From NCBI GenBank assembly GCA_947039955.1, contig CAMRAC010000004.1, positions 47,344 through 111,343 of the forward strand: a DNA stretch of 64,000 nt. Direction: 5' to 3'. The stretch comes from an uncultured Mycoplasma sp. (GTDB lineage Bacteria > Bacillota_I > Bacilli_A > Mycoplasmatales > Metamycoplasmataceae). How positions within the stretch are numbered: the stretch's first letter is position 1; each line of letters begins with the position of its first letter. The translations under genes were made by a program, and so were the position numbers. This document shows, piece by piece, positions 4,435 through 60,748 of this stretch. Under the pieces are notes generated by a model. That model had not been told where the DNA came from, did not search any database, and was given only the letters and a program-made list of their open reading frames with translations.

Positions 4435-5205
4435 TTATATTTTCCTTGCTTCAAAAATCTTGATTGGTAATTCAATTGTCACGATTTCTTCGGGAGTTCC
4501 CTCAGAAGAAGTCCCTAATATAAAATCAAAAATAATTTGATCATTAAAATGACTATTAAAAAGCATATGAATATTTTTTTGATAACCATCAAAAATATTT
4601 TCATTAATCTTTGAACTTGTCAATCTGTCATTTAAAGGTTTTGGATCAGTTGTTAATTCATCAATATTAATTGCTTCTTCTGTAGAAAAAATACCAACAC
4701 CTAGAATTGCATCAGTTGCAAATCTTGAAATATTAAATGTGTTTTCTAAAATTAACCGATTAAGAGTGGTAGTAAGATTTGCAGAATCAACAGAAACAAT
4801 TGTTTTACCTTTTATTTGAGCAATGTCAGAAAACTTTATAGAATAAAAATCAGCAATTTCAGGAGCTATATCTAGAGTTGATATAGAAGTTACTTTGAAT
4901 CAAATATCAAGGTCTTTTTCTCCTAAAATAGGAAGTTCAATTTTGTGTAAATCTATTAAAAAATCATCTGTTGAGTGCTTAGGAGCGACAAATTTACTAA
5001 CTTGCCCTAAATAATCAGATAAAGAAATTTGATCTCCTGTAGGAGTAACACTTAATGTAGGAAGTGGTTTCTTCGCAACTATTTCCTTAATTATTTCTCT
5101 AGCGGCCGTTATTCTGCTTTCATCGTTATTTTGTGAACATGAAATTAACGTTAACGGAAGAATTAACGGTAATGGAGCACCTAAAATAAATAAAGATTTT
5201 TTCAT
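4435..5205 (-). CDS. Lipoprotein (unknown function)
   Basis: AAAGGAG lies upstream of the ATG at 5205. MKKSLFILGAPLPLILPLTLISCSQNN carries a lipobox. Track ORFs 4900-5223 and 4435-4623 share one frame and are joined through TGA. Confidence 0.75.
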
Positions 5206-10590: not shown

Positions 10591-11373
10591 CTAGTAAATT
10601 TTCAGGTAATTCTTCTTATAATCTAAAATGATTTCTACTTCATCATCTAATTTATCTTTTAGAAATTCATCGATACCTTCAATGAACACTTCTTCTATTT
10701 GGTGAGAAACTATTATAAAGTTTATTCCTAAGTTTTGCAAAACTATTTGTTCATTTCATTTAATATCTGATGTTATTAATAAATCACAATTATCTGTTTT
10801 GTTATTATTGATAAAATCATAAACATCACCAGTACCTGGAGCGAAATATATATTATTAATTTTTTCATCAATTGGATTAGTTCAATTAGAAATAACAAAA
10901 TCCAACTTAATATTTGTTTTAATTAAATCTACAAGTGATCCAAAAGAATTCGAATATTCCACAACACTATTAAATCTATAACGCTTAATAACTTTATTTA
11001 ATAGGTTTAATCTTTTCAATAAAAAATGATCTGTCCCCTTTATGTGAGAATCAAATGCTGTGTGTAGCGAATAAGTTGTTATGTTATGTTTGTCAAGTAA
11101 ACTAAACAGCATCTCTTTGGAAGCATCTAATTCAATAGCCTCTAATTTACTGGGAGCAAAACAAAATGGATGATGGGAAACAATTATCGAAACATTTTCT
11201 CTAATAGCCTTTAAAATGGTTTTTTTGTCCACATCTAGTGTAATAAGAATCTTTAATTGTTTTTCTTTTTCAGCAAAAAAAGAAAAACCTCCAAAATCTC
11301 AAGGTTCTTGAGAAGTAAGTGGGAATTCTGTTTCAAATAATTTAATTAGTTCGTTTTGGTTATTAATTTTCAT
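10591..11373 (-). CDS. Nif3-like dinuclear metal centre protein (YqfO/YbgI family)
   Basis: Motifs seen are ..IIVSHHPF.., ..YSLHTAFDS.. and ..APGTGD..SHQIEE. 783 nt in one frame with internal TGAs. The start overlaps the rpoD stop by 11 nt. Confidence 0.8.
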
Positions 11374-13081
11374 TTTGGTAAAAGTCTTTTAGTTTTTTTC
11401 TTCTTTGGGGATGTTTTAATTTTCTCAAAACTTTAGTTTCAATTTGACGAACTTTCTCTCTTGTATATCCAAGTTGTAAAGCGATTTCGTCCAATGTATG
11501 AGATTTAATTCTTTCGCCATTTTCATCTATACCAATCCCATATCTTTTTTGAATGATTTCTTTTTCAAAGTCATCTAAGTGAGAATTAATCATTTCTTCT
11601 AAAATTGCAGATAATTCTTCTTGAGCTGCAAAATCAACTGGAGAAATAACATTATTATCTTTTATGAAATCACTAAATGATGAATCATCTTCTTTTCCAA
11701 TTGGTTTATCTAGTGAAATAGGGTCTATATTTATACGACGAATATATTGCACTTTTTCAGCAGTAAAATCTTCTCCATATCTTTCAGCTATTTGTTGATC
11801 TGTTGGAGTTTCATTTAGTTCTTGTTGTAGTTCTCTTTTAATTTTAATTATTTTATTAATTGTTTCTACCATGTGAACAGGAACTCTAATGGTTCTAGCT
11901 TGATCAGCTACAGCCCTTGTGATCGCTTGTCTAATTCATCATGTAGCATAAGTAGAAAACTTAAATCCTTTTCTTCAATCATATTTTGAAACAGCCTTAA
12001 TAATTCCGGCATTACCTTCAGAAATCAAATCAATAAAAGAAAGACCTCTATTTTTATATTTCTTAGCGTTATTAATAACAAGTCTTAGATTTCTTCTAAT
12101 TAAGATTTCCTTAGCTTTCTTACCATCACGTCCACCTTTTTCAATACGCTTAGCAAGATCGATTTCTTCTTCAGCTGTAAGTAATTGACCATATTTACCA
12201 ATTCAACGCATATATCATTTAACAATATCACTTGTTTCAGATAGTTTATTTTTCATATTTTTATCAGATACTCTTACATGTTTAATATTATCTTCAATAT
12301 CTAATTCATCTGTTTCATCATAATCTTTTAATTCCAAATCATCATCTAACTCATCAAAATCTTTTAATTCCAAATCATCAACATCATCCGAAGATGGTTC
12401 TTCGTCAGTTAAATCACTCATTTGAGCTGGTAACATATCTGACATATCTGCTTCAGTAGAGATAATATTTGTATTCATTAAATGCAAAATTAAATCATCC
12501 AGATCATTATCATCAATTTCTAATTTTTTCTTTTCAAGGAATTTGAAAACTTTTTCTTGTGATATATGTTTGTTTGAAGCATCTTTTTTAGTTTGTTTTT
12601 TTAACTCAACTTCAAGTAGATTAACAATGAAATCAAATTTAGGATTCGAAATAGTTGATTCTTCTTTTTTAACCTTTGGTTTAGAAGAAACTTTTTCTTT
12701 AGCTTCGGCTTTAGGTTTTGGTTCTAATTCAACTTTTGGTTTTGGTGTTGGCTTAGGTTTTGGTTCTAATTCAACTTTTGCTTTAGGTTCAACTTTTGCT
12801 TTTGGTGTTGGCTTAGGTTTTGGTTCTAATTCAACTTTTGCTTTAGGTTCAACTTTTGCTTTTGGTGTTGGCTTAGGTTTTGGTTTTGATTCTAATTCAA
12901 CTTTAGGTTCAATATCAGGTTTAACTTCAACTTTAGCTTTGACTTGTAACTCCATTGTGTCAAATGGAACTTCTTCTTCCTTTACAAAATTTTCTTCAAT
13001 TCTTTTTTTTCTAATAATTGAATTTGATTTAGAGAGTGTTTTCTCTAACTTTACACTACTTCTTTTTTTAAATAACGCCAT
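11363..13081 (-). CDS. rpoD: RNA polymerase sigma-70 factor RpoD with an extended repeat-containing N-terminus
   Basis: Track ORFs 12215-13081 and 11363-11872 are in one frame. The join reads ..[23 protein letters not shown]...[36 protein letters not shown]. 572 aa. Confidence 0.95.
12721..12895 (-). repeat. About 2.9 copies of a 60-bp tandem repeat inside rpoD
   Basis: 12781-12840 is repeated almost exactly at 12721-12780 and partially at 12841-12895. It encodes [22 protein letters not shown] units. Confidence 0.9.
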
Positions 13082-17984: not shown

Positions 17985-18857
17985 TTATTTAGACATTTGA
18001 GCTTTAACTTCAGCTGCGAAATCAACAGATTCTTTATCGATTCCTTCACCAACTTCAAAACGAACCATAGCTACTTCAGTTGCATTTTTTTCACCTAAGT
18101 ATTTAGCTATTGTTTTTCCACCTTCAACAACATATTCTTGTTCAGTCAATGTGTCTTCAGATAATGATTTTCTTAGCATACCTTTTAGGATGTTTTCTTT
18201 AATAGCTTCTGGTTTACCTTGTAACGCTGGAGAGTCAGCAAATTCAGCTTTTAATTTACTTACTCTTTCAGCAGGAACTGATGATTCATTCAAGAATTCT
18301 GGATTCATAGCAGTAATGTGCATTGCGATACCTTTAAGAGCTTCGTCGTTTGCACCTTTAGCTACAAATAAAGCAGCTTTTTGTCCATCAGAGTGAGTAT
18401 AGTTACCAATGAAGATTCCATCTTCTTTAGCAAATTTAACAGCTCTTCTGAAAGAAATTTTTTCACCAATTGTTGATGTTGCTAATGTAGCAAGTTCTTC
18501 AATTGTTTGTCCTTTAGAGTTTGTTAATTTTGCTGCTTCTTCGTCAGTTTTAAAATCATTAGCTATTAAAATGCTTCCGATTTCATTAACTAGAGCAACA
18601 AATTTATCATTCTTAGAAACAAAATCTGTTTCTGAGTTTACTTCGTATATTACACCGAATTTATCATTAACAAGAGTTGATACTAAACCTTCAGCAGCAA
18701 TTCTTCCTGATTTTTTAACAGCTTTAGCAATTCCATTTTCTTGTAATCACTTGATAGCTTCTTTGATATCTCCGTTAGTAGCATCTAAAGCTTTCTTACA
18801 ATCAATAAAACCACTTCCTGTTAATTCTCTTAATTCTTTAATTGGATTTCCAGACAT
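17985..18857 (-). CDS. tsf: Elongation factor Ts
   Basis: [42 protein letters not shown]... continues to ...[12 protein letters not shown]. 873 nt. The start shares one nucleotide with the rpsB stop (TAATG). Confidence 0.95.
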
Positions 18858-19879
18858 TAAACTTCTCCTTCTTTTTTAGCTTTTGACTCAGGATTTGTAG
18901 CAGGCTTATCTTTATTTGCATAAAGAGGTCTTGGTGTTCATCCTTCTGGTCTTTCTCTTGGTACTCAACCTTCTGGTCTTTCTCTCGGTACTCATCCTTC
19001 TGGTCTTTCTCTATTTTCTCATGGTTTTCTTGGACCATCAAAACTTCTATTTGGATTTCTAGTAAATTGACGTCTTTCTTTATTAGCATCTACTGGTAAT
19101 ACAATTTTATCATCTGGTTGGTAAGCAAATTTAACTGTTCCATTTTTAGCTTCAACAATAGCATCTGCCAAAATAGTAATAATTAAGTTTAATGATTTTA
19201 CTGAATCATCATTTGCTGGAATTCCTAAATCTACTAATTCTGGATCACAGTCAGTATCAATAATTCCAATAACTTTAATGTTTCTTTTTCTTGATTCTTT
19301 AATAGCAATTAAATCATCCATTGGATCCGCAATAATCATGAATTGAGGAGCAGAATTCATATTTCTAATACCTTGTAAGTTTTTTTGTAATTTATCAAGT
19401 TCTTTTTTCTTTAGAATTCCTTCTTTTTTAGTGTAACCTTCAAAGTTTTTTTCTTCAAGTTTTTCTAAATCTTCCATTGCTCTAACACGAGAAAAGATTG
19501 TTTTATTATTAGTTAGAGTTCCACCTAATCATCTTTCACTTACATAAGCTGAATTTGTTCTTAGGGCTTGTTCTTTAATAACTTCTTTTGCTTGTCTTTT
19601 TGTACCAACAAAGATAAAGCTAGCACCTTTTTGAGCAGCTTTAAAAATTAATTTATAAGCTAATTCTAATGATTTTTGTGTTTTTGAAACATCAATAATA
19701 TGAGTATTCATTTTTTGTGTATGGATGTATGGAGCCATTTTTGGGTTTCATTGAGATTTTCTATGACCGAAATATGTTCCAGCTTCCAATAGTTTTTTTG
19801 TTGAAACAATTTCACCTGTTTCAGAAGCACTTAAACTTGTTTGTTCAAGAGCAGTTTCTTTTTGTTTGTCTTCTGACAT
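18857..19879 (-). CDS. rpsB: 30S ribosomal protein S2 with a repeat-containing C-terminal tail
   Basis: ..[16 protein letters not shown]... continues to ...FVGTKRQA, then ERW LGGTLTN, then IIDTDCDP. The track stop at 19019 is TGA. The frame continues ..[38 protein letters not shown].. to TAA at 18857. Confidence 0.95.
18939..19019 (-). repeat. Three copies of a 27-bp tandem repeat in the rpsB 3' end
   Basis: The units are tcatccttctggtctttctcttggtac, tcaaccttctggtctttctctcggtac and tcatccttctggtctttctctattttc. Each unit begins with tca, which is TGA (Trp) on the coding strand. Confidence 0.9.
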
Positions 19880-20173: not shown

Positions 20174-21466
20174 ATGAAACAAAAATATATTGATTCGGAA
20201 AACAAACCAAGTATAAATAAAAAATTAAATGTGTTCGAAACATTCTCCGGGATAGGTTCGCAGCACAAAGCCTTTAAGAACGCTTTTGATGAAAGTAAAT
20301 TTGAGATTGTGGCTACCTCGGAATGAGAAATTTACGCAATTATAGCTTATGATGCCATTCACCATGGTCCTGTAAAACAAAAGTCCTTAAATACTCTTTT
20401 AAATAGGGGGGGGGGGATTGTTTCGGTTGAAGACTTATCCACATTCCTTTCTCAATATTCTTTTTCAAAAAATGGTGAAAAAGAAACTGATATAAATAAA
20501 GTTATTAATAAAGAATTAGAACTTGCTCAAAGATTAGCGGTTGCAATGATTAGAAATAAAAATATTGGTAGTATTTTAGATTTTGATAAGATAAAAATCA
20601 GAAATAACATTAATTTATTAACTTATTCTTTTCCTTGTCAAGATTTATCAATAGCAAATATGGGGCGCGGAACCGGTATGGCTAAAGGTGCTGAAAATCG
20701 TTCAGGACTACTTTGAAAAGTGTCTAATATTTTAGAATCATACACTCCTGAAGAACTTCCTGAATTTTTGTTGTTGGAAAATGTACCCAATATGCTTTCA
20801 CAAAATCATAAAAAAGATTATGAAGAATGAGTAAATTATCTTGATTCAAAAGGTTATAAAACAGTCACAGAAATTTTGGATGCAAGACATTATGGAATTC
20901 CGCAAAGCAGAAGAAGAGTTTTTGCGATTTCTTTCAATATAAATAAATTAAATATCAATGATTTTGAAGATATTAAAACAAGGTATAAAAAACACTTAAA
21001 AGATATGGAAGATAATTTTATTTATGAAAAACCAAAAAAAGAAGTTAATAAAGTTTTAAACAAATCTTTTTTATCTCTTGATAAACATGAAGACGAAGCT
21101 TATTCTTGCTTAATGAAAGATACCCCATCTAGAGTAAAAATGGTCCAAGACAACAAAGATTTGTTAGATCCTAATTTGACTTACTTTAGAACTTTAACTA
21201 AAAAGCAGGACAGAAATCCTAATGTTGGTTTTGTTACAACTAACTTTTATAAGGAAGATTATTTAAAAGAAAGATTTATTACTCCTAGAGAAGCTTATAA
21301 AATTATGGGCTTTACAGATAAAGATTTTGAAAATACAAAAAATGATTTATATAAATTTTCAAAGGAAAAATATTATAGCCAAGCAGGAAATTCAATTGTT
21401 GTTAATGTTTTGGAAGCGATATTCAAATTTGTAATGGAGGTGTGAGATGAAAAAAATAGGAAATAA
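20174..21466 (+). CDS. DNA (cytosine-5)-methyltransferase (Dcm family)
   Basis: Motif I is VFETFSGIGSQ, motif IV is SFPCQDLS, motif VI is LLENVPN, motif VIII is QSRRRVFAIS and motif X is AGNSIVVNVL. Read with TGA as Trp, the frame is open from 20174 to TAA at 21464 (430 aa). Confidence 0.9.
20406..20416 (+). repeat. G11 homopolymer inside the methyltransferase coding sequence
   Basis: aaataGGGGGGGGGGGattg encodes N-R-G-G-G-I and is in frame in this sequence. Confidence 0.95.
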
Positions 21467-21977
21467 ATTTTCAAAGATAGGGACAAACCCGCATAAATAT
21501 GTTGAAAATTATAGATTATTATTTTTGAACATAGGCAAACAAGAAATATTAAAAATCAGGAGAGAAGATTTCTCAATAACGCACAACGGAGTAGAAGTCA
21601 AGAGTTTTGGAAGTGATGCAACATTTAGACAAAATATAGATTGTTGAGTGGGCTTAGGTCTTTTCATAAAAAAAGATGATAAACTAGTTAAAGTTTTTGA
21701 AAATATGAATGAAAGTGATTTTTATGAATATATCAGAGGAATTATATTGGTACAGTCAAACAATGAAAAAATAAATGTTTATAGAGACACAATAATAATA
21801 AAATTAATGAATTTTTTAGGGCTAGAAACTATTGAAAAATACAACCTTTCTTGCAGGACTAAATGTATAGTAAAAAAAGATATTGATGAAGAAACTGGTA
21901 AATTTGAAAAAGAATTGCTGAATGATAAAATGCTAAAAAGTATTTTGAAAATAATATGGGAGAATAAATATGAATAA
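21447..21977 (+). CDS. Hypothetical 176-aa protein (weak PD-ExK-like motif)
   Basis: The ATG at 21447 lies inside the last 20 nt of the methyltransferase gene. Track ORFs 21447-21647 and 21648-21977 are joined by one TGA. The segment ..RREDFSITHNGVEVKSF.. gives D41-x8-E50-x-K52. Confidence 0.6.
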
Positions 21978-23856
21978 ATTAACTAAAAAGATAGACGAGA
22001 AAGATTCAGATATAACCATTGACAAAGCTTTATTAATAGAGTGACTTGATATGGAAGGTAAAGTAATTATTATTCCAATTTACCAAAGAGGTTATTCATG
22101 AGAAGTTGGGCATATTGAGACATTATTTGAAGATATTGTGAACAGAATGGAAGATGATTCTTCTCACTATTTTGGAATAATTGCCGGAAAAAATATAAGT
22201 GGTTCAGGTCCGGGTAAAAAAAATATAGTCAAAATAATTGATGGTCAACAAAGATTGACTAGTTCTTTTTTATTTTTTTGTGCAATTAGGGACATTATAT
22301 TAGAAGAAGAAATAGGCAATATTATTGATTATAAAACTTTATCAAAAATATTAAAAATAAATTCAAAAGAAAAAATTGAAGAATACTTCTATAATCCTGG
22401 AGGTCAAACAGACTTAAATGAAGCATTTATAAAAATTTTAAAAGGTGATTTAAAAGATATAAAGAAGAAGAATAATTTTTATGAAAATTATTTGAAATTT
22501 AAAGAATTAATTCAAAATAAACAATTTAATTTTGAAGAATTAAATCAATTAATGAACACATTTTTATATAAATTTGAAATTGCTAACATATTTTTTAAAA
22601 CAGATAAAATTTCAAATAAGAAAGAAATGGAAATTTTTGAAAACTTAAATTCAAAAGGCAAGGAATTAAGTTCTGAAGATTTAATAAAAAACTTTATTTT
22701 TAATCTTTGTTCCGATGAATTACTTGTAAAACACGATGAAGATCAAATAACTCTTATTTTTCACTCATCTATTACAGATGAATTGGGAGAAGGTAAATTG
22801 ACTGGTAAATTTTACAAAAGCTTAATCCAATATAATATAGGTACTGAGTTCCAGGACAATAGACAAATTCAATTAACTGAATTCAAAAAAGTGGTTGAAA
22901 ATATATTTAATATTGATATGAATGAAGAAATAAAGACAATAAAAGAATATAAAAAATTATTAAATGAAATTAAAGATTATGCAAAAATTTTCTATGATAT
23001 TTCTAAAGAAAATAGAAAAAAAATAGTTTCTTGATTGGGTGTGGAAAAAATAATCATCCTTTGTAATGAAGAAAGTAAATTAAATCTATTTGCCGGATTA
23101 ACATATTTGATGTTTGAATTTTTTAAAAGACAAGATAAATATGATGTCAACGTCCGTCTTCCTGAAGCAACTCAAAAAGATATTAAAAGAATTTACCTAA
23201 CAATTATGAAAGCAATAACTAAAAACTGAGTTATTACAAGGCGTGGTGATTCTGGTTTTAGAAGGATGATTTTAAAATCTATATATTTAGTAAGACAAGA
23301 TTTTTTGAATGATTTAAAAATTACACTTCAAACAATAGGAGAGAAATTAAAAAAATATATTGCTGACGGATTAAATAGTGATGAAGAATTTAGGTCATCT
23401 ATTATAAATAATAGTGATGCACACAAATCAATTACATGACTTCTTATATTAACAGAATGAGAAATGAGTGATTGATTAAATTCTGGACAATATATTGATT
23501 ATAAATCTCCTTCTATTGAACATATATTACCTAAAAACTCTGACCTTTGAGAAGAAGAAATGATACAAAATTCAGAATATAATATGGAAGAATTTAGAAA
23601 AAACAAAGAAAGAAATTTAGAACAATTTGGTAATTATTTTATACTAAACAAAGAGAAGAACTCCTCTGTAGGCAATATTATTTTTTCAAAAAAACAAGAA
23701 GGGTATAAAACAAACACATCACCTTTATATAACAATCCTAAATATCCTGATATTGATATTTCTAGAAAAACATCATGAGGATTTAAAGATATTCAAAAAC
23801 GTACTGACAAACTTATAAACTATATTTGTGAAAGCGTTATTAAAGACAACAATTAA
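21970..23856 (+). CDS. DUF262 + DUF1524 protein (GmrSD-like type IV restriction nuclease family)
   Basis: N-terminal motifs are IIPIYQRGYSW, KIIDGQQRLTS and FENLNSKGKELSSEDLIKN. C-terminal motifs are SIEHILPKN...FGNYFILNKEKNSSVGN. Four track fragments share one frame (1887 nt, 628 aa) with only TGA between them. Confidence 0.85.
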
Positions 23857-41234: not shown

Positions 41235-42281
41235 TTAGTTACTTGAAGGAAGTTTTTTTACTTTGTTAGTAAAAATTTGTTCTGGAGTTATTCCGCCATT
41301 GGTTTCAGTTGTTAATCCACCTGGGAAAGTTGGGATATTTGCTCCAAAATTATTAAGAGCAAAAGCTTCTAAACCAATGCTTTTTATTTGACTAGGTGTT
41401 GGTCATACTATTGATGATATATTGTTTTGTAAGAATGCGTCAATTCCAATACTTTCCAAGTTTATCAAATCATGTAAATCTAATTCTCCAGATAATTTAT
41501 TATTATAAAAAGCACTATTACCAATTGATTTAATTTTGGAAAAGTTATTTCAAAGAATAGATGTAATGGAATTTTTCCCAAAAGCACTTGGTCCAATATT
41601 TTCTAACGAACTCAAAGAAACAAAGCTCAATTCTGTAAGTTCGTTTGTATTGAATGCCGCAGTACCAATAGATTTAATCTTATTTTCTCTTTCAGGTCAA
41701 TAAATTTTTGAAATTGAATTTTGTCCAAAAGAATAATCAGAAATAATTTCAAGATTAATTAAACCTCTTAAATCAACAGAAGTAAGTCCTATACTAGAAA
41801 AAGCACCTTGCTCAATGACTTTTAACTTACTTAATCCACTTAAATTAAGATCAATATTTAGTAATTTTGGTAAGTCGAAACCAAATGCTCAACTACCAAT
41901 ATATTCCAAGTTTGTTAAATGCGATAAATCTCAAGGAACAGAGGTTTCTCCTGTGTTCGCAACAGGAGAAACTATATTCTGAAAAGCTCAACTCCCTATT
42001 TTTACTAATGTTTTAGGCAAAGTTAGTCCGTTGATTTGTTGATCCGCAAATGCAGCATTAGCAATTTCTGTAATCTTAACTCCATTATATTCTTCTTTAA
42101 TTTCTAATTTTTCAGGGTGAGTTCCTTCATCGGCATAACCCATAACAACACCTTTTGAACTTATTTCAAGACCTTCAGCTTCAAAATAAGTAGTTGTTTC
42201 ATTTGAACTACATGATATGGTAATTAATGGAATTATTCCAATCGGTAATAATGCTAATGGTAATAGTTTTTTAGTATTCAT
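41235..42281 (-). CDS. BspA-like leucine-rich-repeat lipoprotein, copy 1
   Basis: AGGAG lies 8 nt before the ATG at 42281. MNTKKLLPLALLPIGIIPLITISCSS carries a lipobox. Repeats follow of the type L..L..IG..AF....L (for example LSHLTNLEYIGSW AFG, LSSLENIGPSAFG). Confidence 0.85.
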
Positions 42282-42557
42282 TTTATTTCTCCTTAACACT
42301 TACTCTTTGATTTCTTAAACTAAATAGTTTTAGTTAGTTGGAGGAAGCTTTTTTACTTTGTTAGTAAAAATTTGTTCTGGGGTTATTCCGCCATTGGTTT
42401 CAGTTGTTAATCCGTCTGGGAAAGTTGGGATATTTAGACCAAAGTTATTAACTGCAAAAGCACCTAAACCAATGCTGTTTATTTGACTTGGGGTTGGTCA
42501 TTGAATTGATGATATATCATTAAATCTAAATGAGTTAATTCCAATACTTTTTAAATT
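42201..42557. repeat. 357-bp block nearly identical to 43446-43802
   Basis: Hand alignment shows 2 mismatches. The block spans one copy's signal-peptide coding region, the intergenic spacer, and the last roughly 230 nt of the upstream copy. Confidence 0.9.
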
Positions 42558-43526
42558 GATTAAAGTTGATAAATTCAACTCTCCAGTAATTGTGTTAGAT
42601 TCAAATGCAGCCTCACCTATAGATGTAACTTTATTATCAATAGGTCATTTGATTGATGTTATTTGATTATGAGCAAACACATTTTTATCAATTTTTTCCA
42701 AATTTATTAAGTCGTGTAAATCTAATTCTCCAGATAATTTATTTTCATAAAATGCTCCATCACCAATTGTTTTGATTTTAGAAAAATTATTTCAAAGAAT
42801 AGATGTGATTAAATTTCCAGCAAAAGCACTAGAACCTATACTTTCTAGCAAATCAAGTGAAACAAAATTTAATTCTGTAAGTTGGTTTCTAAGAAAAGCT
42901 GCAGAACCAATAGATTTAATTTTATTATCTTCTTCAGGTCAATAAATTTTTGAAATTAAATTGTCAGAAAAAGTCCATTCTTTTATCTCTTCAAGATTAA
43001 TCAAACCTCTTAAATCAACAGAAGTAAGTCCTATGCCTGAAAAAGCACTATTATTAATTGCTTTTAATTTACTCAATCCACTTAAATCAAGATCAAGATT
43101 TAATTTTTTTGGATTAATAACTCCAAAACTAAATGCTGAATTACCAATATATTCTAGGTTTGTTAAATGTGATAAATCTCAAGGCAAGGGAGCTTCTCCG
43201 GTGTTTGCAACAGGAGATTCTATATTTTGAAAAGCTCAATTCCCTATTTTTACTAATGTTTTTGGCAAGATTAATCCATTAATCTTTTCATCCGAAAATG
43301 CATCAGAATGAATTTCTGTAATAGTAACGCCATTATATTCTTCTTTAATTTCTAGTGGTCCAACATGGTTTTTAGATTCTATAAACCCATATACCACACC
43401 TTTATAATCTATTTCAAGGCCTTCAGCTTCAAAAGTACCTGTTTGATTTGAACTACATGATATGGTAATTAATGGAATTATTCCAATTGGTAATAATGCT
43501 AATGGTAATAATTTTTTAGTATTCAT
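42330..43526 (-). CDS. BspA-like leucine-rich-repeat lipoprotein, copy 2
   Basis: It has the same signal peptide and LRR pattern as copy 1. The frame is open from 43526 to TAA at 42330 with TGA read as Trp. Confidence 0.85.
42831..43033. repeat. 203-bp block identical to 44076-44278
   Basis: Hand alignment found no mismatch. The block is internal LRR coding sequence of copies 2 and 3. Confidence 0.85.
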
Positions 43527-43802
43527 TTTATTTCTCCTTAACACTTACTCTTTGATTTCTTAAACTAAATAGTTTTAGTTAGTTGGAGGAAGCTTTTTTA
43601 CTTTGTTAGTAAAAATTTGTTCTGGGGTTATTCCGCCATTGGTTTCAGTTGTTAATCCGTCTGGGAAAGTTGGGATATTTAGACCAAAGTTATTAACTGC
43701 AAAAGCACCTAAACCAATGCTGTTTATTTGACTTGGGGTTGGTCATTGAATTGATGATATATCATTAAATCTAAATGAGTTAATTCCAATACTTTTTAAA
43801 TT
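43446..43802. repeat. Partner of 42201-42557
   Basis: See 42201-42557. Confidence 0.9.
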
Positions 43803-44777
43803 TGTTAAAGCTAATAAATTTAATTCCCCAGCAATTGCATTAGATTCAAAGGCAGACTCACCTATAGATGAAATTTTACTATTAATAGGTCATATTATTG
43901 ATGATATTTTATTTTTAGAAAATACACCTTCTTCAACACTTTCCAAGTTTATCAAATCATGTAAATCTAATTCTCCAAATAATTCATTAGCGGCAAAGGC
44001 GCTCTTTCCAATTGTTTTAATTTTGGAAAAGTTATTCCAAAGAATAGATGTAATGGAATTTCCTGCAAAAGCATTAGAACCTATACTTTCTAGCAAATCA
44101 AGTGAAACAAAATTTAATTCTGTAAGTTGGTTTCTAAGAAAAGCTGCAGAACCAATAGATTTAATTTTATTATCTTCTTCAGGTCAATAAATTTTTGAAA
44201 TTAAATTGTCAGAAAAAGTCCATTCTTTTATCTCTTCAAGATTAATCAAACCTCTTAAATCAACAGAAGTAAGTCCTAAACCAGAAAAAACACTATCATC
44301 AATAACTTTTAATTTGCTTAATCCACTTAAATTAAGATCAAGATTTAATTTTTTTGCATTATAGCTTCCACGGTCAAAAACACCTCTACCAATGTATTCT
44401 AGATTTGTTAAATGTGATAAATCTCAAGGAACAGAAGTTTCTCCTGTGTTAGCAACAGGAGATTTTATGCCTTCAAAAGCTCAACTCGCTATTTTCACTA
44501 ATGTTTTAGGTAAAATTAAACCTTCTATTTGCTCGCCTCGAAAAGCAGATTGAGCAATTTTCGTAATAATAACACCATTATATTCTTCTTTAATTTCAAG
44601 TGGTCCAATGTGTGTGTTTTTTGAAACAAAACCCATTATTTCACCATCAGACCCTATTTTTAAACCTTCCGCTTCAAATGTATATATGTTTTCTGGTTGT
44701 GTTGAACATGATATAGTTATCAATGGAATAATTCCAATCGGTAATAATGCTAATGGCAATAGTTTTTTAGTATTCAT
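43575..44777 (-). CDS. BspA-like leucine-rich-repeat lipoprotein, copy 3
   Basis: It has the same signal peptide and LRR pattern as copies 1 and 2. The ATG at 44777 lies 1 nt after the stop of the upstream 850-aa gene. Confidence 0.85.
44076..44278. repeat. Partner of 42831-43033
   Basis: See 42831-43033. Confidence 0.85.
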
Positions 44778-44778
44778 T

Positions 44779-47331
44779 TTATTTCTCCTTAACACTTATT
44801 CTCTGAGCTTCTAATTTGATTATGTCTCTTAGATATAATCAAGCATCTTTATAAGTTAAAAAATGGTGTGTTTTATTATTATAACCTAATTCATATATAA
44901 AATTTGTTTCAAAATCTAACAATGTATATGTTTCATTGTCATTTTTATAATAAATTTTATTAGGATCATTTTTAACAATCAATGTACGATAAATATTATC
45001 TAAAATTGTTTGTTCAGAATCATACATAGCATCTGAAGTTGTTTCCATTGCTAAATCATCACTTAATTGAATTCCAGGATTAATAACATTGCCAAATAAG
45101 TCATAAATTATAATAACTTTAGCTGGATTAATTTTATTACTTGTTAACTTAACAGATTCCAGTTCTGGCGTATTATAAATTATTTTTTTATTATCACTAG
45201 TGCTAGATAAAGATTCATTAAAGTCATATACCAAAGAAATGTATTCTCCATAATGCAATTCTGATGTTTTTCTATTTATTCCTGAAGCAACAGGATCTGT
45301 TAAAACCAAAATATTATTTTCATTATCTATCAATTTATTTTTAATGTTTTCAGGCAATACATTTGAATATTTTGTTTTTAACTCACTTAAATTATCATTA
45401 TAAGAACTAAGAGCATAAACAAGATTATCATATTTATGTGGGACTTCATCTTTTGTAGAAGTCAAGGTTCCTTGATGTTCTGTTTCTGTAAAAGAAAATA
45501 ATTTGTCTGCCATTATCTTTGTTTTTACAAAAGCGTTATTGCTAGAAATATTTTTACCATCTCCTGAAATATTATTTGAAATATTTGATAAATTTTCTGA
45601 ATTATAAGTTTCATAAAATTTATCTAAATATTGTTTGTAAAAAAATGTTTCTGGTAATGCAAAATTTTCAAACACAAAAGAATCATTAATTTTAAAAATA
45701 GGACTTTTGTTATATGTCAAAAAGTAATTCATTTTTTTATATGTTAATAGAAACTGATCTATTATAAATTTATTATTATCAATTGCTTTATACTCATTAT
45801 CATATTGATTTTTTATATCTCTGAAAATAAAACTAAGTTTTTCAACCATTTTTAATTCATTATTAGAACTATATTTATTATATTCAACATTAAAATATTT
45901 AGAATTAATTTCACTAAACATCATTGTATCTGTCATTGATTCAATAATATTGTTTTTAAATTGTTCCTCAATTAGTGTGGTTTCAATTTGCTTGGTTGAA
46001 GTTTCTGGTTTTCATTTATCCATCAATTTTATTTTTATTGATTCTACAAATTTTGCTTCATTTTCTAATTGAAAATTAACGTCAAAATCTATTTGATTTC
46101 CTTTTTTTCCATTTACAGAGTGACTTCCTGGTTGCAATATTTGTGTGTTTGTATTTGTAACAGTCCAAGGTCCATCATCCCCTGTAGAAAAAAGTTTAAA
46201 TTTTGCTGTTTTTCTAAGGAAATTTGTAAAGATTAAATTATCTGCCTGTTTGACAGGGCCTGCATACTGAACTACTCCCTCTACACCATTTTCTTTTATT
46301 CATGTTTTTCTATTTAAAAAAACATCAAATTTATTAAGATTTGCATAATCTACCTCTTTAAAAGTCATTGTGTCTAATCTTTCTCTACCTTTAACAGTCT
46401 TTGTAGTCAAGTCAGGAAATTCTGTTCCAGAAATTTTTTCTAAATTATATGCAAGATCATCATGAGTGTAATTTAATTTCACTGTTGCTTTAAAGACACT
46501 TTCCATAAAAGTTTCTGTCATAGCTGTCGCAAAATCATCAGTAATTTCATTATAAAAATCTGAAATATTTTTTGTAAATAAATTATTTAACCATGAGGTA
46601 TCTGAAAGAGCTACAAAATTGCCATCATCTTTGTTTTTTGCAATATTTAGCATAGGCATCATCCCAAAAGTATTATTTTTGTTATTAGGGTCTTTAACTT
46701 GCTCTTTTGCATTTCTTAAAGTTATTTCTTTCATTTTATTAATATCATCTTTATTTAAAGGATTTATTTTAACAGTTGTATTTTTTTCTTCATCATAAAC
46801 TTCATAGAAAACAGTTTCATCAACCTTGATACCCTTAAGGATTTCTCTTTGTGCTTCAGAGTATGAAGAGTGTAAAACACCTTTGGTATCTTGATATTTG
46901 TATTTGACAAGTCCTTCATTAACAAAAGATTTTTTTGCTTTGTTAAAATCTTGTTCATAACCACCAAAGGCATTGACATAAGCTGAAGAAATTTTGTTTT
47001 GATCAAATTTCTTTAGTTCATTAATATTTAATTGATTGGTTTGATGGTCAAAAATTGCATTTCCAGCATCTCCGTAATATAAATCATCATTAATATATTT
47101 GTTATTATTAACTAATTCATTAGTAATGTCGTCCAATGAGTCGTAATACTTGTTATTAAATAAATATTTAAACTCATTGTTGCCATTATTGTTGGCATTA
47201 AGGGCACTTTCTTCTTGATTAATGATTGAAACCATCGAACCTTGAGCAGCAACTACAGAAATAGCTGCAACAATAGAAGAAGTAAAGAGTAATCCTGAAC
47301 CTATTAGTTTAAATTTGTTTTTATTTTTCAT
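44779..47331 (-). CDS. Large membrane-anchored/secreted protein, 850 aa (unknown family)
   Basis: Track ORFs 46300-47331 and 44839-45936 lie in one frame. I translated 45937-46303 and 44779-44841 codon by codon and found only TGA. The N-terminus MKNKNKFKLIGSGLLFTSSIVAAISVVAAQG is a signal or anchor with no lipobox. Confidence 0.75.
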
Positions 47332-55806: not shown

Positions 55807-56451
55807 TTAAATTTCAAGGTTTATTTTATAAAGGTCACCATCTTTTTCTTTAAAATCAACATTTCCTAATTTTCTAGCTAAAGCAATAATGAATTTTTTA
55901 TAAGGAATTTTTATTGTCAAGTATTTCAAAGTACTTTTAAAGCAAAAATTTGCTGTATTACCCAAAACAATAACATCATCAATAAATACAAAAATATTTA
56001 TTTTATTTTGATCTGGCATCTTGCTAATTGATTCGAATGACTTAACTTCATCAATTGAAGGACGTGTTTTGTCTCCGTTACGAGTGTAATAATCTATTGC
56101 ACATGTATAATAAAAAATAATATTTTTATCAATTTCTATAATATCTTTTTCAAAAGATAAAATTGTATTATTTTTATGACTCGACCTCTCATTGCAAGTT
56201 TCAGACAAAGCATCTTGGTGTTTTGAAGGCGGAAAGAAAACAATTATATTATGCTTTTCAGGTGTATATTTATTAATTATTTTTTTAATTCTACTAATAA
56301 AATCTTCATATAATTCAGGAATTTCGTTCTTAATAATCCTTGCGTATTCCGTTTTATTATTTTGAAGCTTTAATAAATGATAGTTTTTATTTTCTTCTCC
56401 ATCTTTAAATTTATATCATGCGCAAGCTTGTGTTAAGGGAATGTCACCCAT
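55807..56451 (-). CDS. Phosphoribosyltransferase (PRTase)-like protein, 214 aa (ShosT-like or ComFC-like)
   Basis: The PRPP-loop-like motif is NIFVFIDDVIVLGNTA. I translated 56209-56451 codon by codon. The ATG at 56451 shares one nucleotide with the upstream TAA. Confidence 0.65.
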
Positions 56452-57332
56452 TAATCAACCTCTACTAAGTGTTTCAATATTTTTTCTGTTCAAGAACTTT
56501 TTTTCATAAATTCTAAATTATTTTTATAAACTTCACTCGGCAATTTAATTGTATTGTTTGTTAATTTTTTTGAAACTTCATACATTTGAGATAAAGTTCC
56601 TGATTTATTTTCAAAAAATAAAACATATGTTTCAAAAGATATTTGGGCCATTCATTTATTTCTTTCAATAAAATAACCCTTATAATAATTACCTTTATCA
56701 AAGGGCGGCAAACTATACAAAATAGTTCCTTGTTCCCTTGCATAATTAATGATTTTCTCTTGTTGAGCATTAATTTTATTAGTTATATCAACTCCTGGGA
56801 AAATTATTATTTTTTGATTATTTTTTATTGCATTATTATGAGCAATAGTGTCAGCTCCTTTTGCTAATCCTGAAACAATTATTTTATTTTTAGGAACATT
56901 CTTTTCAACTCATGATTCCATATTTTTATTAGTTTTTCTAGATCCCACAACTGAAACATAATCTTTATAATTTTTTTGCAAAAACTCTAATTGTCCTTCA
57001 TAAAAAAAGAATAAACTGTTTTTTAATTCACCAAAACATTCAAATAAATGAAAATCATCTTTTATGATACTTTTGATATTTTTCATTTCTAAAATAAATA
57101 TTATTGATTTTATTCTTTCTTGAAAATAAGATAATTTAATATTTTCAAATAATGTTATATTTTCAGTTATTTCTTTTTCTTTTTCTTTAATAAAATTTTC
57201 AAAATTAACACCTATTAATTTGTTGAATTTTGTTATCGTCATATCTTCTTTATCTTGTTGTTCTAAATCAAATAATGCATAATATTTAGCTATAAGTTCA
57301 TTTCTATTTATTTCCATATTAATATAATACAT
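56451..57332 (-). CDS. DprA/Smf-like (SLOG fold) protein, 293 aa (ShosA-like)
   Basis: ..YVSVVGSRKTNKNMESW VEKNVPKNKIIVSGLAKGADTIAHNNAIKNNQKIIIFPGVDI...FIERNKW .. matches the DprA Rossmann core (VGSR...SGLA.G.D..AH...G.D..FxxRN). The frame was followed by hand from 56910 to TAA at 56451. Confidence 0.75.
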
Positions 57333-57377
57333 TTAAAAACTTGTGTTAAGCATTAAAACTACAATTTATTTTATTGA

Positions 57378-58143
57378 TTATAGTTTTAAAATACAAGATT
57401 TATTTTTTCACAAGCAAATCTTGCCACCTTCTTTGCCAATTTTAAGATAACTCTCTATTCCTTCAAATATAAAAACCAAAGCTATCTCTACAGAAATGAT
57501 CTTGGAATAGGAATCTCCAAAATAATCTTTTAACTCCTTAAATGGATAATAGCATGACTCTTTTATTTCTAGAGATATTTTTTTGATTTTCAAAAACATT
57601 GTCGATGTAAAAAATTGTTTTATCTTGAGGTGTTTTATATTTTGTAATACTAACTTTTTTTAGAAATTTGTATTTTGTATTTTTTTCTAAATTTTCATAG
57701 TCTTTAGGAAGGGTTTTAACGCTTGATATTTTCTTACCAATATAAGTTGATTCTTCCTTAGTTTTATAACCCACTCTCTTATTAGGGTTACCATTATTAA
57801 CCTTAATATCATCTACACCAGTTGCATCTTTACGTGTTAGCAATGAAAGTAATGCTCTTTCCATAGATTCACTCTCTTTTCAAGAACCAACATTTATTTT
57901 TGCTTTCGCTTTTGATTTAATTATTCATTTACAATCAGGTTCATGATTATTTTTAGCTCTAAAATAACATATTTTTTTATAATTAAAACCAAAGGCAGCA
58001 ATAATCATAGGGGTTTTGCATAAGTCAAAAGAACAAATATATCTTTGTTCAATTAAATTATCAATGTGCTTATCTATTTCTGATTTAGACATATCAGCAT
58101 AATCCTTGAGTGTAGTATTAGGTTCGATTTCTATGTATTTCAT
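57378..58143 (-). pseudogene. Frameshifted gene for a Cys-rich, possibly PD-ExK-type protein
   Basis: The frame of 57925-58143 and 57538-57864 ends at TAA 57538. An overlapping frame (57408-57599) continues to TAA 57378. Removing one A from the A7 tract (T7 at 57578-57584 on the plus strand) fuses them to ..IFYIDNVFENQKISLEIKESCYY.. Confidence 0.5.
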
Positions 58144-58275
58144 GTGTACTAAAATTATATACCTTATATGACCTCAGGAACACATAAGCGTTAATACAAA
58201 TAACACTACAAAAAGCAAAAAAGTATTTATAATTGATTCATAAATTAAATATAAATTTAATTTAAAGGAGGAAAT

Positions 58276-58557
58276 ATGCCAAGAGGTTTATATCACAATG
58301 ATGCAGAGCAAGCATGAGATGATGCGGACGAATGCAATTGCGAAGCAGGTGATTGTTACGAAAACAATCATAAAGAATGTGGATTATGTACTGACCACAT
58401 TCTCTATGGTTCTCATGAAAGCGTCATTGGACAACAAACTAGTTATTATAGATGAAATATTGATCATAAAAAAGCAACTAGCAAGAACGGCAAAAATATA
58501 AGATCAAATAGACATGCCGTTCATGTTTCATGCAACCAAGAAAAAGCCGATAATTAA
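58276..58557 (+). CDS. Small HNH endonuclease-family protein, 93 aa
   Basis: AAAGGAGG lies before the ATG. MPRGLYHNDAEQAW DDADECNCEAGDCYENNHKECGLCTD...YYRW NIDHKKA...HAVHVSCNQEK shows a Cys cluster plus HNH motifs. Confidence 0.8.
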
Positions 58558-58566
58558 ATATACTAT

Positions 58567-58597
58567 AAAACCCTAAACTAATTTGGGTTTTATTTTG
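58567..58597 (+). terminator. Terminator-like hairpin after the first HNH gene
   Basis: aaaaccc...gggtttt followed by attttg. Confidence 0.55.
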
Positions 58598-58691
58598 TCA
58601 ATAATTAATTTTAATTGTAATTGAGAAATAATCTCATTTTTTAAAATTTGAGTATATAATTGGAATTGAGTCAGATAAAAAAGGAAGTCAC

Positions 58692-59876
58692 ATGATTTTA
58701 AAATACTCTATAGAAAACTTTAAGTGTTTTCAAGAAAAAGAAACAATTAACTTTAAGGCGAAGAAAATTTCTGAAAGTTTTGATACTGAGAGTTATTTAC
58801 TATTAGATAATGATATTTTGCCAATCATTTCTATTTATGGACCTAATGGAGGTGGAAAGACATCCTTTATTGAGTCTATTTCATTTTTAAAAAACATTGC
58901 GCTTGGAAGCGATAAAGTAAATGGAATGATTCTTCATTTTCTAAAAAATGAAAAGAACGTTTTAAAAGATATTAAATGGGAAATTGAGTTTACTTCAATA
59001 GATAAATCTGTATACCGATATGTTTTGCATTATAACAATGCAATCACATTTGAATCTCTTTTTAAAAAAAATGATCTAATTTTTAAAAAGAATAAAGATA
59101 ATGTTGAGTTTTGCAAGGAAATTCTTGAAAGTAATATAAAAATTGAAAATAAAGCAAAGGAATCATCAATGTTACAATTCATAAACTCTATTTTAAACAA
59201 TGAAGATATAGCCATAGTTATTAGAGAATTTAAGAAAATTAATTATCTTGATTCGTCTGAAGATATAACTATCAAACACACAAACGGAGTGCCGGAGTTG
59301 GATTTTGGAGATATTAATTTTATAAAAAATAAAAAGGAGATCTTTATAAAAATTTTTATAGATTTAGACATAAATATTCATGATTTAGAATTTTATGAAG
59401 ACCCATTTAACCCCAATAATATTAAGATATGATCTGTAAAAAAATCAAGTTTTGGGAGTGTTTTTAGAATCCCTTTTTTTGAAGAATCAAAAGGAACTAT
59501 GAAGTTATTACATTTGATGACCTACTTTATTAAAGGACTGATAAATAAAGAATCTTTTATAATTGATGAATTAGATTCTGCATTGCACACAAAATTATTA
59601 AAGTATATTATCAAGTTGTTTAATTCAAAGGAAATGAACAAAGAATCACAATTAATTTATACTTCGCACGATATGCCTACTTTAAATAAAGAAAATTTTA
59701 GAAGAGATCAAATTTACTTTTGTGCAATCAATGAATCTTACTTTTCCAACATTATATCTTTAAAGGATATTGGCGCTAGAAATGATGATAAGTATTATAA
59801 AAAATATCTTGAAGGTAAATATGGATATGACCCTTATATAGATTATTCAATCAAGGCTTTTGATGGTAAAAAATAG
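58692..59876 (+). CDS. AAA-type ATPase (AAA_15/21-like, OLD/AbiLi/PtuA-like), 394 aa
   Basis: Walker A is IYGPNGGGKTS and Walker B is FIIDELDSALH. The track fragments are joined by one TGA. Confidence 0.8.
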
Positions 59877-60465
59877 CGGTAAAACCTTAAAAACTTCCGT
59901 TATTTGCGAAGGAGAAACGGACAAATGATTTCTTAACTTTTTGAAAACTAATTTATATCAAACAAGGCAACCAGTCTGCAAAGAACACTCTCAAGTGATT
60001 TACGGAACAATTAATTTAGCAAATATAAAAAAGAAGATTGAACGTGATTGTTGCAGAGCGTTTTATTTTTTTGATAAAGATGAAATAAGAGAAGGTATGT
60101 TGCAAAAGTTGAAAGATAAAATAAAGGAACAAGGAGATACTTGAATATTTTTTAACCCACAAATGGAATTGTGTTTATTAGCAATATTTGAGAAACACCA
60201 CGATTATAAACTAGACAAAAAAACACTTGAACAAAAACTTACAAAACATATTAATAATAATAATATTTACAAAGATAAATATGATCATAAGCCAGAAATA
60301 TTACAAAAAATATTATTACATCTTAAAGAAATAGTTAAAGATGACAAAAACGATTATACATTATTGCAATTTGAAGAAAATTTACAACATTATAATTCCA
60401 ATAAGTATTTACACACAAACTTGATAGAATATATAAATCACTTAAAAATGAAAAGAGAGAACTAA
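59863..60465 (+). CDS. RloB-like (Toprim-like) protein, 200 aa
   Basis: The ATG at 59863 overlaps the ATPase 3' end by 14 nt. The N-terminal TSVICEGETDKW FLNF matches the RloB motif (CEGE.TE..YF). Three fragments are joined by TGA. Confidence 0.7.
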
Positions 60466-60466
60466 A

Positions 60467-60748
60467 ATGGCGGAAATAAAATACAACGAAGAAATAGAAA
60501 CAATATGAGAGAGTGCTCCTTATTGTAATTGTGAAAAAGAAGACTGTAAGATAATTGAACATCGTTTGTGTGATATTTGTTCTAAGACAATCTTGTATGG
60601 AGCTCATGAAAGTATTGAAAGCCAAAGAAACAACCCCGGAGCATGAAACTTTGATCAAATCATTGCCAAGTCTAATGGTGGTGGAGATGGTATCTTAAAC
60701 CTGCAAGCTGTTCACATTAACTGCAACAGAGATAAAACTGATCAATAA
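60467..60748 (+). CDS. Small HNH-family paralogue, 93 aa, with DH replaced by DQ
   Basis: MAEIKYNEEIETIW ESAPYCNCEKEDCKIIEHRLCDICSK...GAW NFDQIIAKSNGGGDGILNLQAVHINCNRDK. It has the same length and Cys pattern as the gene at 58276-58557. Confidence 0.7.

Follow-up and report, generated by a model that had tools for sequence, protein, structure and literature searches.

A poly(G) tract as the probable phase-variable switch of a C5-cytosine methyltransferase gene in an uncultured Metamycoplasmataceae lineage

In a stretch of DNA of 64 kb (hereafter the window) from an uncultured mycoplasma, a gene for a C5-cytosine DNA methyltransferase (the methylase) carries inside its reading frame an uninterrupted run of 11 G, the G11 tract, which is most probably a phase-variable (contingency-locus) switch of this enzyme. 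We put the probability of this reading at roughly 85%. It is preferred because in-frame (ON) and out-of-frame (OFF) tract lengths both occur naturally in the same and in sister species, the OFF alleles are otherwise intact, the gene is under purifying selection, homologues carry convergent (AG)n repeats, and there is a published precedent in Mycoplasma agalactiae. The original prediction, made from the sequence of the window, had already taken the run for a homopolymer slippage switch in a C5-methyltransferase gene, and all of these observations speak for it. The host belongs to an uncultured Metamycoplasmataceae lineage; its EF-Ts is 90% identical to that of a Metamycoplasmataceae metagenome-assembled genome (MAG), 61% to that of Mesomycoplasma moatsii and 54% to that of Mycoplasmopsis pulmonis, and the close loci all come from metagenome assemblies.

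The G11 tract and its natural lengths

The features of the methylase gene are listed below by position in the window. Translation table 4 was used, in which TGA is read as Trp as in the host; table 11 breaks all genes into pieces. Lengths of proteins and positions in them are given in amino acids (aa).

20174-21466, + strand: C5-cytosine DNA methyltransferase gene, 430 aa (table 4), M.MpeI/M.SssI-like, first in its cassette (PF00145, TIGR00675, 4DKJ)
20234-20260, + strand: motif I FETFSGIGS (binding of S-adenosylmethionine, AdoMet), aa 21-29, upstream of the tract
20406-20416, + strand: G11 homopolymer, predicted slippage-prone switch, encoding (A)GG GGG GGG GGG = R78-G79-G80-G81
20493-20499, + strand: two out-of-frame TAA stops, of which 20493-20495 serves G10, G7 and G13 and 20497-20499 serves G12 and G9; products 106-108 aa
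20546-20548, + strand: in-frame ATG (M125), the start of the 306-aa 'methylase' of gene callers in OFF assemblies, a product that would be without motifs I-II
20630-20650, + strand: motif IV FPCQDLS (catalytic Cys), aa 153-159, downstream of the tract

The assignment of the gene to its family is well founded, with matches to PF00145 (E 1.5e-50, 172.9 bits against a cut-off of 22) and to TIGR00675 (142.3 bits against a cut-off of 100.65), and with the catalytic motifs in canonical order: I FSGIGS (aa 24-29), IV FPCQDLS (153-159), VI LLENVPN (200-206), VIII PQSRRRVF (243-250) and X QAGNSIVV (403-410). Among solved structures the best match is M.MpeI (4DKJ), aligned over aa 10-421 of the methylase and 4-389 of M.MpeI with an E of 1.5e-39, compared with 4e-14 for M.HhaI.

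The tract is exceptional in its surroundings. The window has 27.2% G+C, and G11, counted at exactly 11 G as had been claimed, is its only G or C homopolymer of six or more, the next longest being three runs of 5. G or C runs of at least 11 are expected in the window 4e-5 times under a model of independent, identically distributed bases and 1.4e-4 times under a first-order Markov model. In the long open reading frames (ORFs) of the window, GGG accounts for 6.5% of the codons for Gly and AGG for about 9% of those for Arg, so the tract is built from rare codons; it is thus preserved as DNA and does not arise merely from what it encodes. It occupies aa 78-81, between motifs I-II (aa 21-52) and the PCQ of motif IV, that is, where the original prediction had placed it, and at 11 G it is in frame, in one uninterrupted 430-aa ORF, the intact ON gene that had also been foreseen.

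We simulated other tract lengths. The gene stays in frame with 5, 8, 11 or 14 G and is OFF at every other length. G10 yields 106 aa with the TAA at 20493-20495, and G12 yields 108 aa with the TAA at 20497-20499. Both stops precede PCQ, as expected from the original prediction; they lie about 25 and 27 codons past the tract and not about 30 and 32, a trivial difference.

Natural variation of the tract carries the argument further. Most of the closest proteins in the databases were calls of 306 aa that began at M125, as would be expected of frameshifted genes, and the contigs that encode them confirmed the frameshift. By exact look-up, four contigs carry the 430-aa form; the 306-aa form is on three, of which one is 826,830 bp long. 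The loci with a G tract, all at the same codon position and in the same phase, are as follows (related loci carry L numbers).

Same species (~100% methylase identity), G11, ON: the window and L006
Same species (~100% methylase identity), G10, OFF: L001
Second species (87% aa identity of the methylase), G8, ON: L007 and L008
Second species (87% aa identity of the methylase), G7, OFF: L002 and L003
Third species (81% methylase identity), OFF: L004 (G9) and L012 (G7)

Tract length is thus polymorphic between natural populations, and both states of the proposed switch have already been captured in natural metagenomes. Each OFF allele with a G tract is restored to a full-length ORF by the addition or removal of a single G, with no secondary lesions. 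Among the three species dN/dS (the ratio of nonsynonymous to synonymous divergence) is 0.10-0.17 at dS 0.7-0.86, which indicates that the gene is under purifying selection and that the tract was kept despite frequent OFF states; the tract has outlived a divergence at which unconstrained synonymous sites largely randomise. The protein itself does not seem to need the G run. The GGG of the tract pairs in the alignment with DRD of M.MpeI, inside a linker that is not conserved, and a 76%-identical homologue (L011) has an intact methylase with no repeat at the tract site, which together indicate that the run is dispensable for the protein. One further locus (L005), found by scanning genome contigs with the methylase, is partial and does not include the tract region. 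For annotators the consequence is that 306-aa 'methylase' calls and N-terminal fragments of 106-137 aa are to be expected, and that these probably represent switch states and not pseudogenes.

A separate observation concerns the DNA directly 5' of the G tract in the second species, where a 12-bp tandem duplication, TAAATACTCTTT x2, adds LNTL (L002 at about 4841-4864, with L003, L007 and L008 at the equivalent position).

Further homologues of the cassette to which the methylase belongs carry a different repeat in the first gene.

L009, 4705-4750: (AG)23, directly after motif I, OFF
L010, 4711-4750: (AG)20, directly after motif I, OFF
L013, 662-695: (AG)17, directly after motif I, OFF
L014, 416-435: (AG)10, at the site equivalent to the G tract
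L015, 3-26: (AG)12, at the site equivalent to the G tract
L016, 1-26: (AG)13, at the site equivalent to the G tract
L017, 6-29: (AG)12, at the site equivalent to the G tract
L018, 1292-2092: first gene for a different, 266-aa protein with PPCESWS and ENP motifs and (AG)12 right after the ATG

The methylases of the first three (58-59% identity, same three-gene cassette) have (AG)n in place of the G tract and would be ON with 16, 19, 22 or 25 units. The cassette of L014-L017 is more distant, with a second protein 34-36% identical to that of the window, and in three of these four the contig ends inside the repeat, as would be expected if the reads are heterogeneous there. The 266-aa protein of L018 gave no Pfam match; going by its motifs, it may be a divergent methylase-like enzyme. 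Taken together, the first gene of the cassette appears to have gained repeats independently on four or more occasions, and little other than selection for switching would readily explain this. The family thus offers a case of apparent convergent evolution, since its first gene carries either poly(G) or an (AG)n tract, the latter at three different places.

From these observations the following mechanism can be proposed. Slipped-strand mispairing at replication would add or remove one G; lengths of 5, 8, 11 and 14 would give the 430-aa methyltransferase, as in the window, and all others would end translation at codon 106-108, past AdoMet motifs I-II and before PCQ, leaving no complete enzyme. 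A population would then be a reversible mixture of cells with and without 5-methylcytosine (m5C) in their own DNA. Since the switch sits in the first, promoter-proximal gene, it would probably also alter what the whole cassette does.

The three-gene cassette and other features of the window

Two genes follow the methylase in close packing.

21436-21442, + strand: Shine-Dalgarno sequence GGAGGTG for ORF2, inside the 3' end of the methylase gene
21447-21977, + strand: ORF2, 176 aa, overlapping the methylase gene by 20 nt, with invariant motifs IGTNP and FRQNIDCW
21958-21964, + strand: Shine-Dalgarno-like sequence GGGAGAA for ORF3
21970-23856, + strand: ORF3, 628 aa, predicted GmrSD-family (DUF262 + DUF1524) nuclease/NTPase, overlapping ORF2 by 8 nt

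ORF3 matches PF03235 (E 4e-33) and PF07510 (E 4.8e-13), its best PADLOC models are 'Orf5' and HEC-06 (E 3e-34), and its DGQQR and EH..N..N motifs are intact (KIIDGQQRLTS and SIEHILP...GNYFILN). At 628 aa it is without the N-terminal DUF4145-like domain of about 170 aa (R..N...H, HEPN-like) of its 780-807-aa homologues (for example L002, 6425-8818), and the 637-aa version in L009 is also without it. ORF2 had no Pfam or PADLOC match, and in NCBIfam only a sub-threshold one to DpdG (E 0.0012, 18 bits against a cut-off of 80). Its family is tiny, with 29 homologues in a word index and 71 relatives in a profile search of 1.84 billion representatives, and these are almost all stand-alone proteins of about 170-190 aa, with no informative fusion. 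The AlphaFold model, made from the 99%-identical protein P0127, is confident (predicted local distance difference test, pLDDT, 89.9; predicted template modelling score, pTM, 0.85) and has no structural neighbour in PDB or in BFVD (viral structures) at E <= 0.001. In every locus examined ORF2 stands between a methylase or methylase-like gene and a GmrSD-like gene. The trio stays together where it lies elsewhere in the chromosome (beside dnaA, in L009 and L010) and where ORF2 is 34-40% identical, which indicates a mobile functional unit. Another locus, L019 from a Metamycoplasmataceae MAG at NCBI, also has the cassette; its methylase is intact and contains no repeat.

It is possible, in our view doubtful, that the methylase frameshift silences ORF2 and the GmrSD-like nuclease as well, through lost translational coupling or mRNA destabilisation, so that the tract would switch the whole cassette. 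The original prediction had described the two downstream genes as translationally coupled to the methylase. The ORFs indeed overlap as described, which supports the claim in part. Each downstream gene, however, has its own Shine-Dalgarno sequence, conserved in all cassettes, and about 950 nt separate the premature stops from the ORF2 start downstream, more than termination-reinitiation coupling can span. To our knowledge Mollicutes have no Rho, and classical transcriptional polarity is therefore not expected either. Proteins of the HEC-06 type, moreover, act as stand-alone defences (bioRxiv 10.1101/2024.01.29.577857). An operon is nevertheless supported by the overlaps and by a packing conserved in all cassettes, and a scan of the cassette found no terminator-like sites and promoter-like sites only at background (32 against 29.9 expected), a level that is uninformative about internal promoters. 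The repeat is always in the first gene, even where the protein differs (L018). ON and OFF alleles both occur as population consensus with intact and identical ORF2 and ORF3, which is easiest to understand if the nuclease is co-regulated with methylation or indifferent to it.

The same genotypes bear on what ORF3 may do. A constitutive nuclease against unmethylated self DNA was rejected, as OFF genotypes with intact ORF3 are common, and so was a constitutive nuclease against DNA methylated by its neighbour, as ON genotypes are no less common. What remains is co-regulation, an effector licensed by the mark (SspE-like logic), or independence within a defence islet. A more speculative suggestion, to which we give somewhat less credence than to silencing of the whole cassette, is that the cassette is an undescribed, repeat-gated and methylation-linked defence module, in which the m5C mark licenses, or is sensed by, ORF2 and the GmrSD-family effector by SspE-like logic. 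Slippage at the head of the cassette would, on this view, change the immune and epigenetic state as a whole, and cells would be spared autoimmunity in both states. Such a module would explain why ON and OFF cells are viable with an intact nuclease, why the trio moves as a unit and why repeats recur in the first gene.

Elsewhere in the window a second defence-like islet lies at 56451-60748, with the following features.

56451-57332, - strand: DprA-like gene
58276-58557 and 60467-60748: two paralogous 93-aa Cys-rich proteins flanking the ATPase pair
58692-59876: AAA_21 ATPase
59860-60465: its overlapping 201-aa partner

The Cys-rich protein at 58276-58557, the one of the pair that was scanned, gave a weak HNH match. 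Repeats are present in other genes of the window as well. The rpsB gene (18857-19879, - strand) has an in-frame 27-bp x3.1 tandem repeat at 18929-19012 that gives ribosomal protein S2 a C-terminal extension of RERPEGWVP x3, and a 572-aa ORF (11363-13081, - strand) has a 60-bp x3.1 coding tandem repeat at 12728-12912 with 93% matches. Three paralogous genes for lipoproteins whose signal peptides are identical (MNTKKLLPLALLPIGIIPLITISCS) lie in tandem at 41235-44795 (- strand) and may be a variable surface-antigen family.

Points against the proposed switch and competing readings of the tract

Several points have to be set against the phase-switch reading or against parts of it. The first concerns what is methylated. 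By family resemblance the target of the methylase is probably CpG, and this specificity is not assured, as its recognition loop differs from that of M.MpeI. The CpG-contacting residues of M.MpeI are F302, S304 and E305, and its G322-A323-N324-S325 loop reads guanine (PMC10899764). After the shared TLT, loop 2 reads TLTKKQDRNPN in the window methylase and TLTASGANSRI in M.MpeI, and the motif T(L/V)T..QDR.PN at the position of the guanine loop is conserved within the cassette methylases. The Phe of loop 1 was not found in the window methylase, a weak negative given the poor alignment in the target-recognition domain. Composition does not decide the question: the CpG observed/expected ratio of the window, 0.51, is compatible with CpG methylation yet typical of Mollicutes generally, and the most depleted palindromic 4-mers relative to Markov expectation, GATC (0.65) and CGCG (0.55), are depleted only mildly.

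The other points concern the switch itself. Two cassette lineages (L011 and L019) are without a repeat, which means that switching is not obligatory for the cassette. The length differences are differences between assembly consensus sequences, some of which may come from overlapping samples, and homopolymer lengths can be miscalled. Finally, fragments 1-61 and 62-395 of M.MpeI reassemble to an active enzyme in E. coli (PMC5944983), so that the OFF state might not be fully silent if a C-terminal fragment were made from M125.

This last point leads to a competing reading, which we consider unlikely: the 106-108-aa N-terminal fragment, with motifs I-II, and a C-terminal fragment from M125, with motifs III-X, would form an active split methylase, and the tract would modulate activity and not abolish it. 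The M.MpeI split, which complements strongly, lies between motifs II and III near the tract equivalent; M125 is conserved and gene callers start there in the three species (A-C); and an NCBIfam family for an N-terminal subunit of cytosine-5 methyltransferases exists (NF045953), weakly matched by the N-terminus of the methylase (51 bits against a cut-off of 93). However, the equivalent split of M.SssI is inactive (PMC5944983), and in M. agalactiae CpG methylation is absent from strains whose alleles are truncated (PMC9465063). In the window itself there is no Shine-Dalgarno sequence before the ATG at 20546, and residues 82-124 would be absent from both fragments.

It is less probable still that the tract is merely a fragile hot spot and that the OFF alleles are pseudogenes on their way to loss. 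Such decay would fit with the OFF state of 8 of the 13 loci examined, all (AG)n loci included, and with M. agalactiae, in which most alleles are truncated too (PMC9465063). A decaying gene would hardly be expected, however, to show such low dN/dS over so large a dS, to have a second lesion in none of its OFF alleles, to keep in three species a tract of rare codons that the protein can do without, and to have gained independent repeats at four positions. The least probable reading is that the true tract is fixed and the G numbers differ through sequencing or assembly miscalls, for although several platforms make errors in runs of 7-11 G and the lengths used here come from assemblies, the states recur across assemblers (G11 twice, G8 twice and G7 three times, in SPAdes 'NODE_' and MEGAHIT 'k141_' contigs), each protein form is present on 2-4 contigs, and length also varies in the (AG)n tracts, which are dinucleotide repeats and no homopolymers (20 and 23; 10, 12 and 13).

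Comparison with known systems

The downstream part of the cassette resembles GmrSD-family defence genes (Eco94GmrSD, BrxU, SspE, HEC-06), with which ORF3 shares a DUF262 domain with DGQQR and a DUF1524 domain with an EH-type His-Me motif. Genes of this kind frequently lie within modification-based systems. One of them, HEC-06, is an experimentally active stand-alone anti-phage protein that needs both its DGQQR and its EH...N...N motifs (bioRxiv 10.1101/2024.01.29.577857). In the literature retrieved, none of these systems was described as regularly paired with a 176-aa protein and a repeat-gated m5C methylase. If the link between the methylase, the small protein and the GmrSD-like protein is functional, it would be a new wiring of a modification enzyme to a GmrSD-family effector, and the 'orphan' status of the CpG-type methylases of mollicutes would be worth re-examining. 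Compared with Type II restriction-modification, the sole nuclease adjoining the methylase is the GmrSD-family ORF3, and the OFF alleles with intact ORF2 and ORF3 argue against a simple, constitutively expressed cognate endonuclease.

The methylase itself is like M.MpeI (4DKJ) and M.SssI in its full-length match, in the insertion between motifs II and IV and in the presence of all catalytic motifs. M.MpeI differs in having no repeat tract, and its match to the window enzyme is a distant one. With the phasevarions, that is, mod and other methylases of Haemophilus, Neisseria and Helicobacter and the Type III methylase MmyCI of M. mycoides with its (AG)12 (PMC3498834), the locus shares a simple-sequence repeat inside a methylase ORF, which would make methylation stochastically ON or OFF. 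Most of those enzymes methylate N6-adenine, belong to Type III and have a demonstrated regulon; the window enzyme is, by its sequence, a Type II-like m5C methylase.

The closest precedent is M. agalactiae, in which all CpG methylase genes carry a poly(G) of 6-11 'just upstream of the active domain' (Dordet-Frisoni et al. 2022, PMC9465063). Analysis of fragment lengths there revealed variants 1-2 G shorter (in one strain from 1 shorter to 1 longer) in all tested cultures, CpG methylation was found only in the strain with a full-length allele, and the homologues of M. pulmonis and M. crocodyli carry poly(GA) (PMC9465063). The likeness is extensive: a mollicute host, a C5-methylase related to M.SssI and M.MpeI, a poly(G) inside the ORF, within the same range of lengths and shortly before the catalytic domain, frameshifts that lead to a truncated product, and relatives with a GA/AG dinucleotide repeat instead. 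The comparison was made with the published description; methylation and switching were measured in M. agalactiae and are predicted for the window locus, and the window host is an uncultured member of the Metamycoplasmataceae. The M. agalactiae enzyme is also described as an orphan with unrelated flanks (PMC9465063), unlike the window gene, which heads a conserved cassette. The slippage mechanism is therefore already published for the same enzyme family and bacterial class, and what may be new is the context of the conserved methylase/ORF2/GmrSD-like cassette. On the reading preferred here, repeat-gated m5C methylation would extend beyond the cultured mycoplasmas of ruminants and rodents to an uncultured Metamycoplasmataceae lineage.

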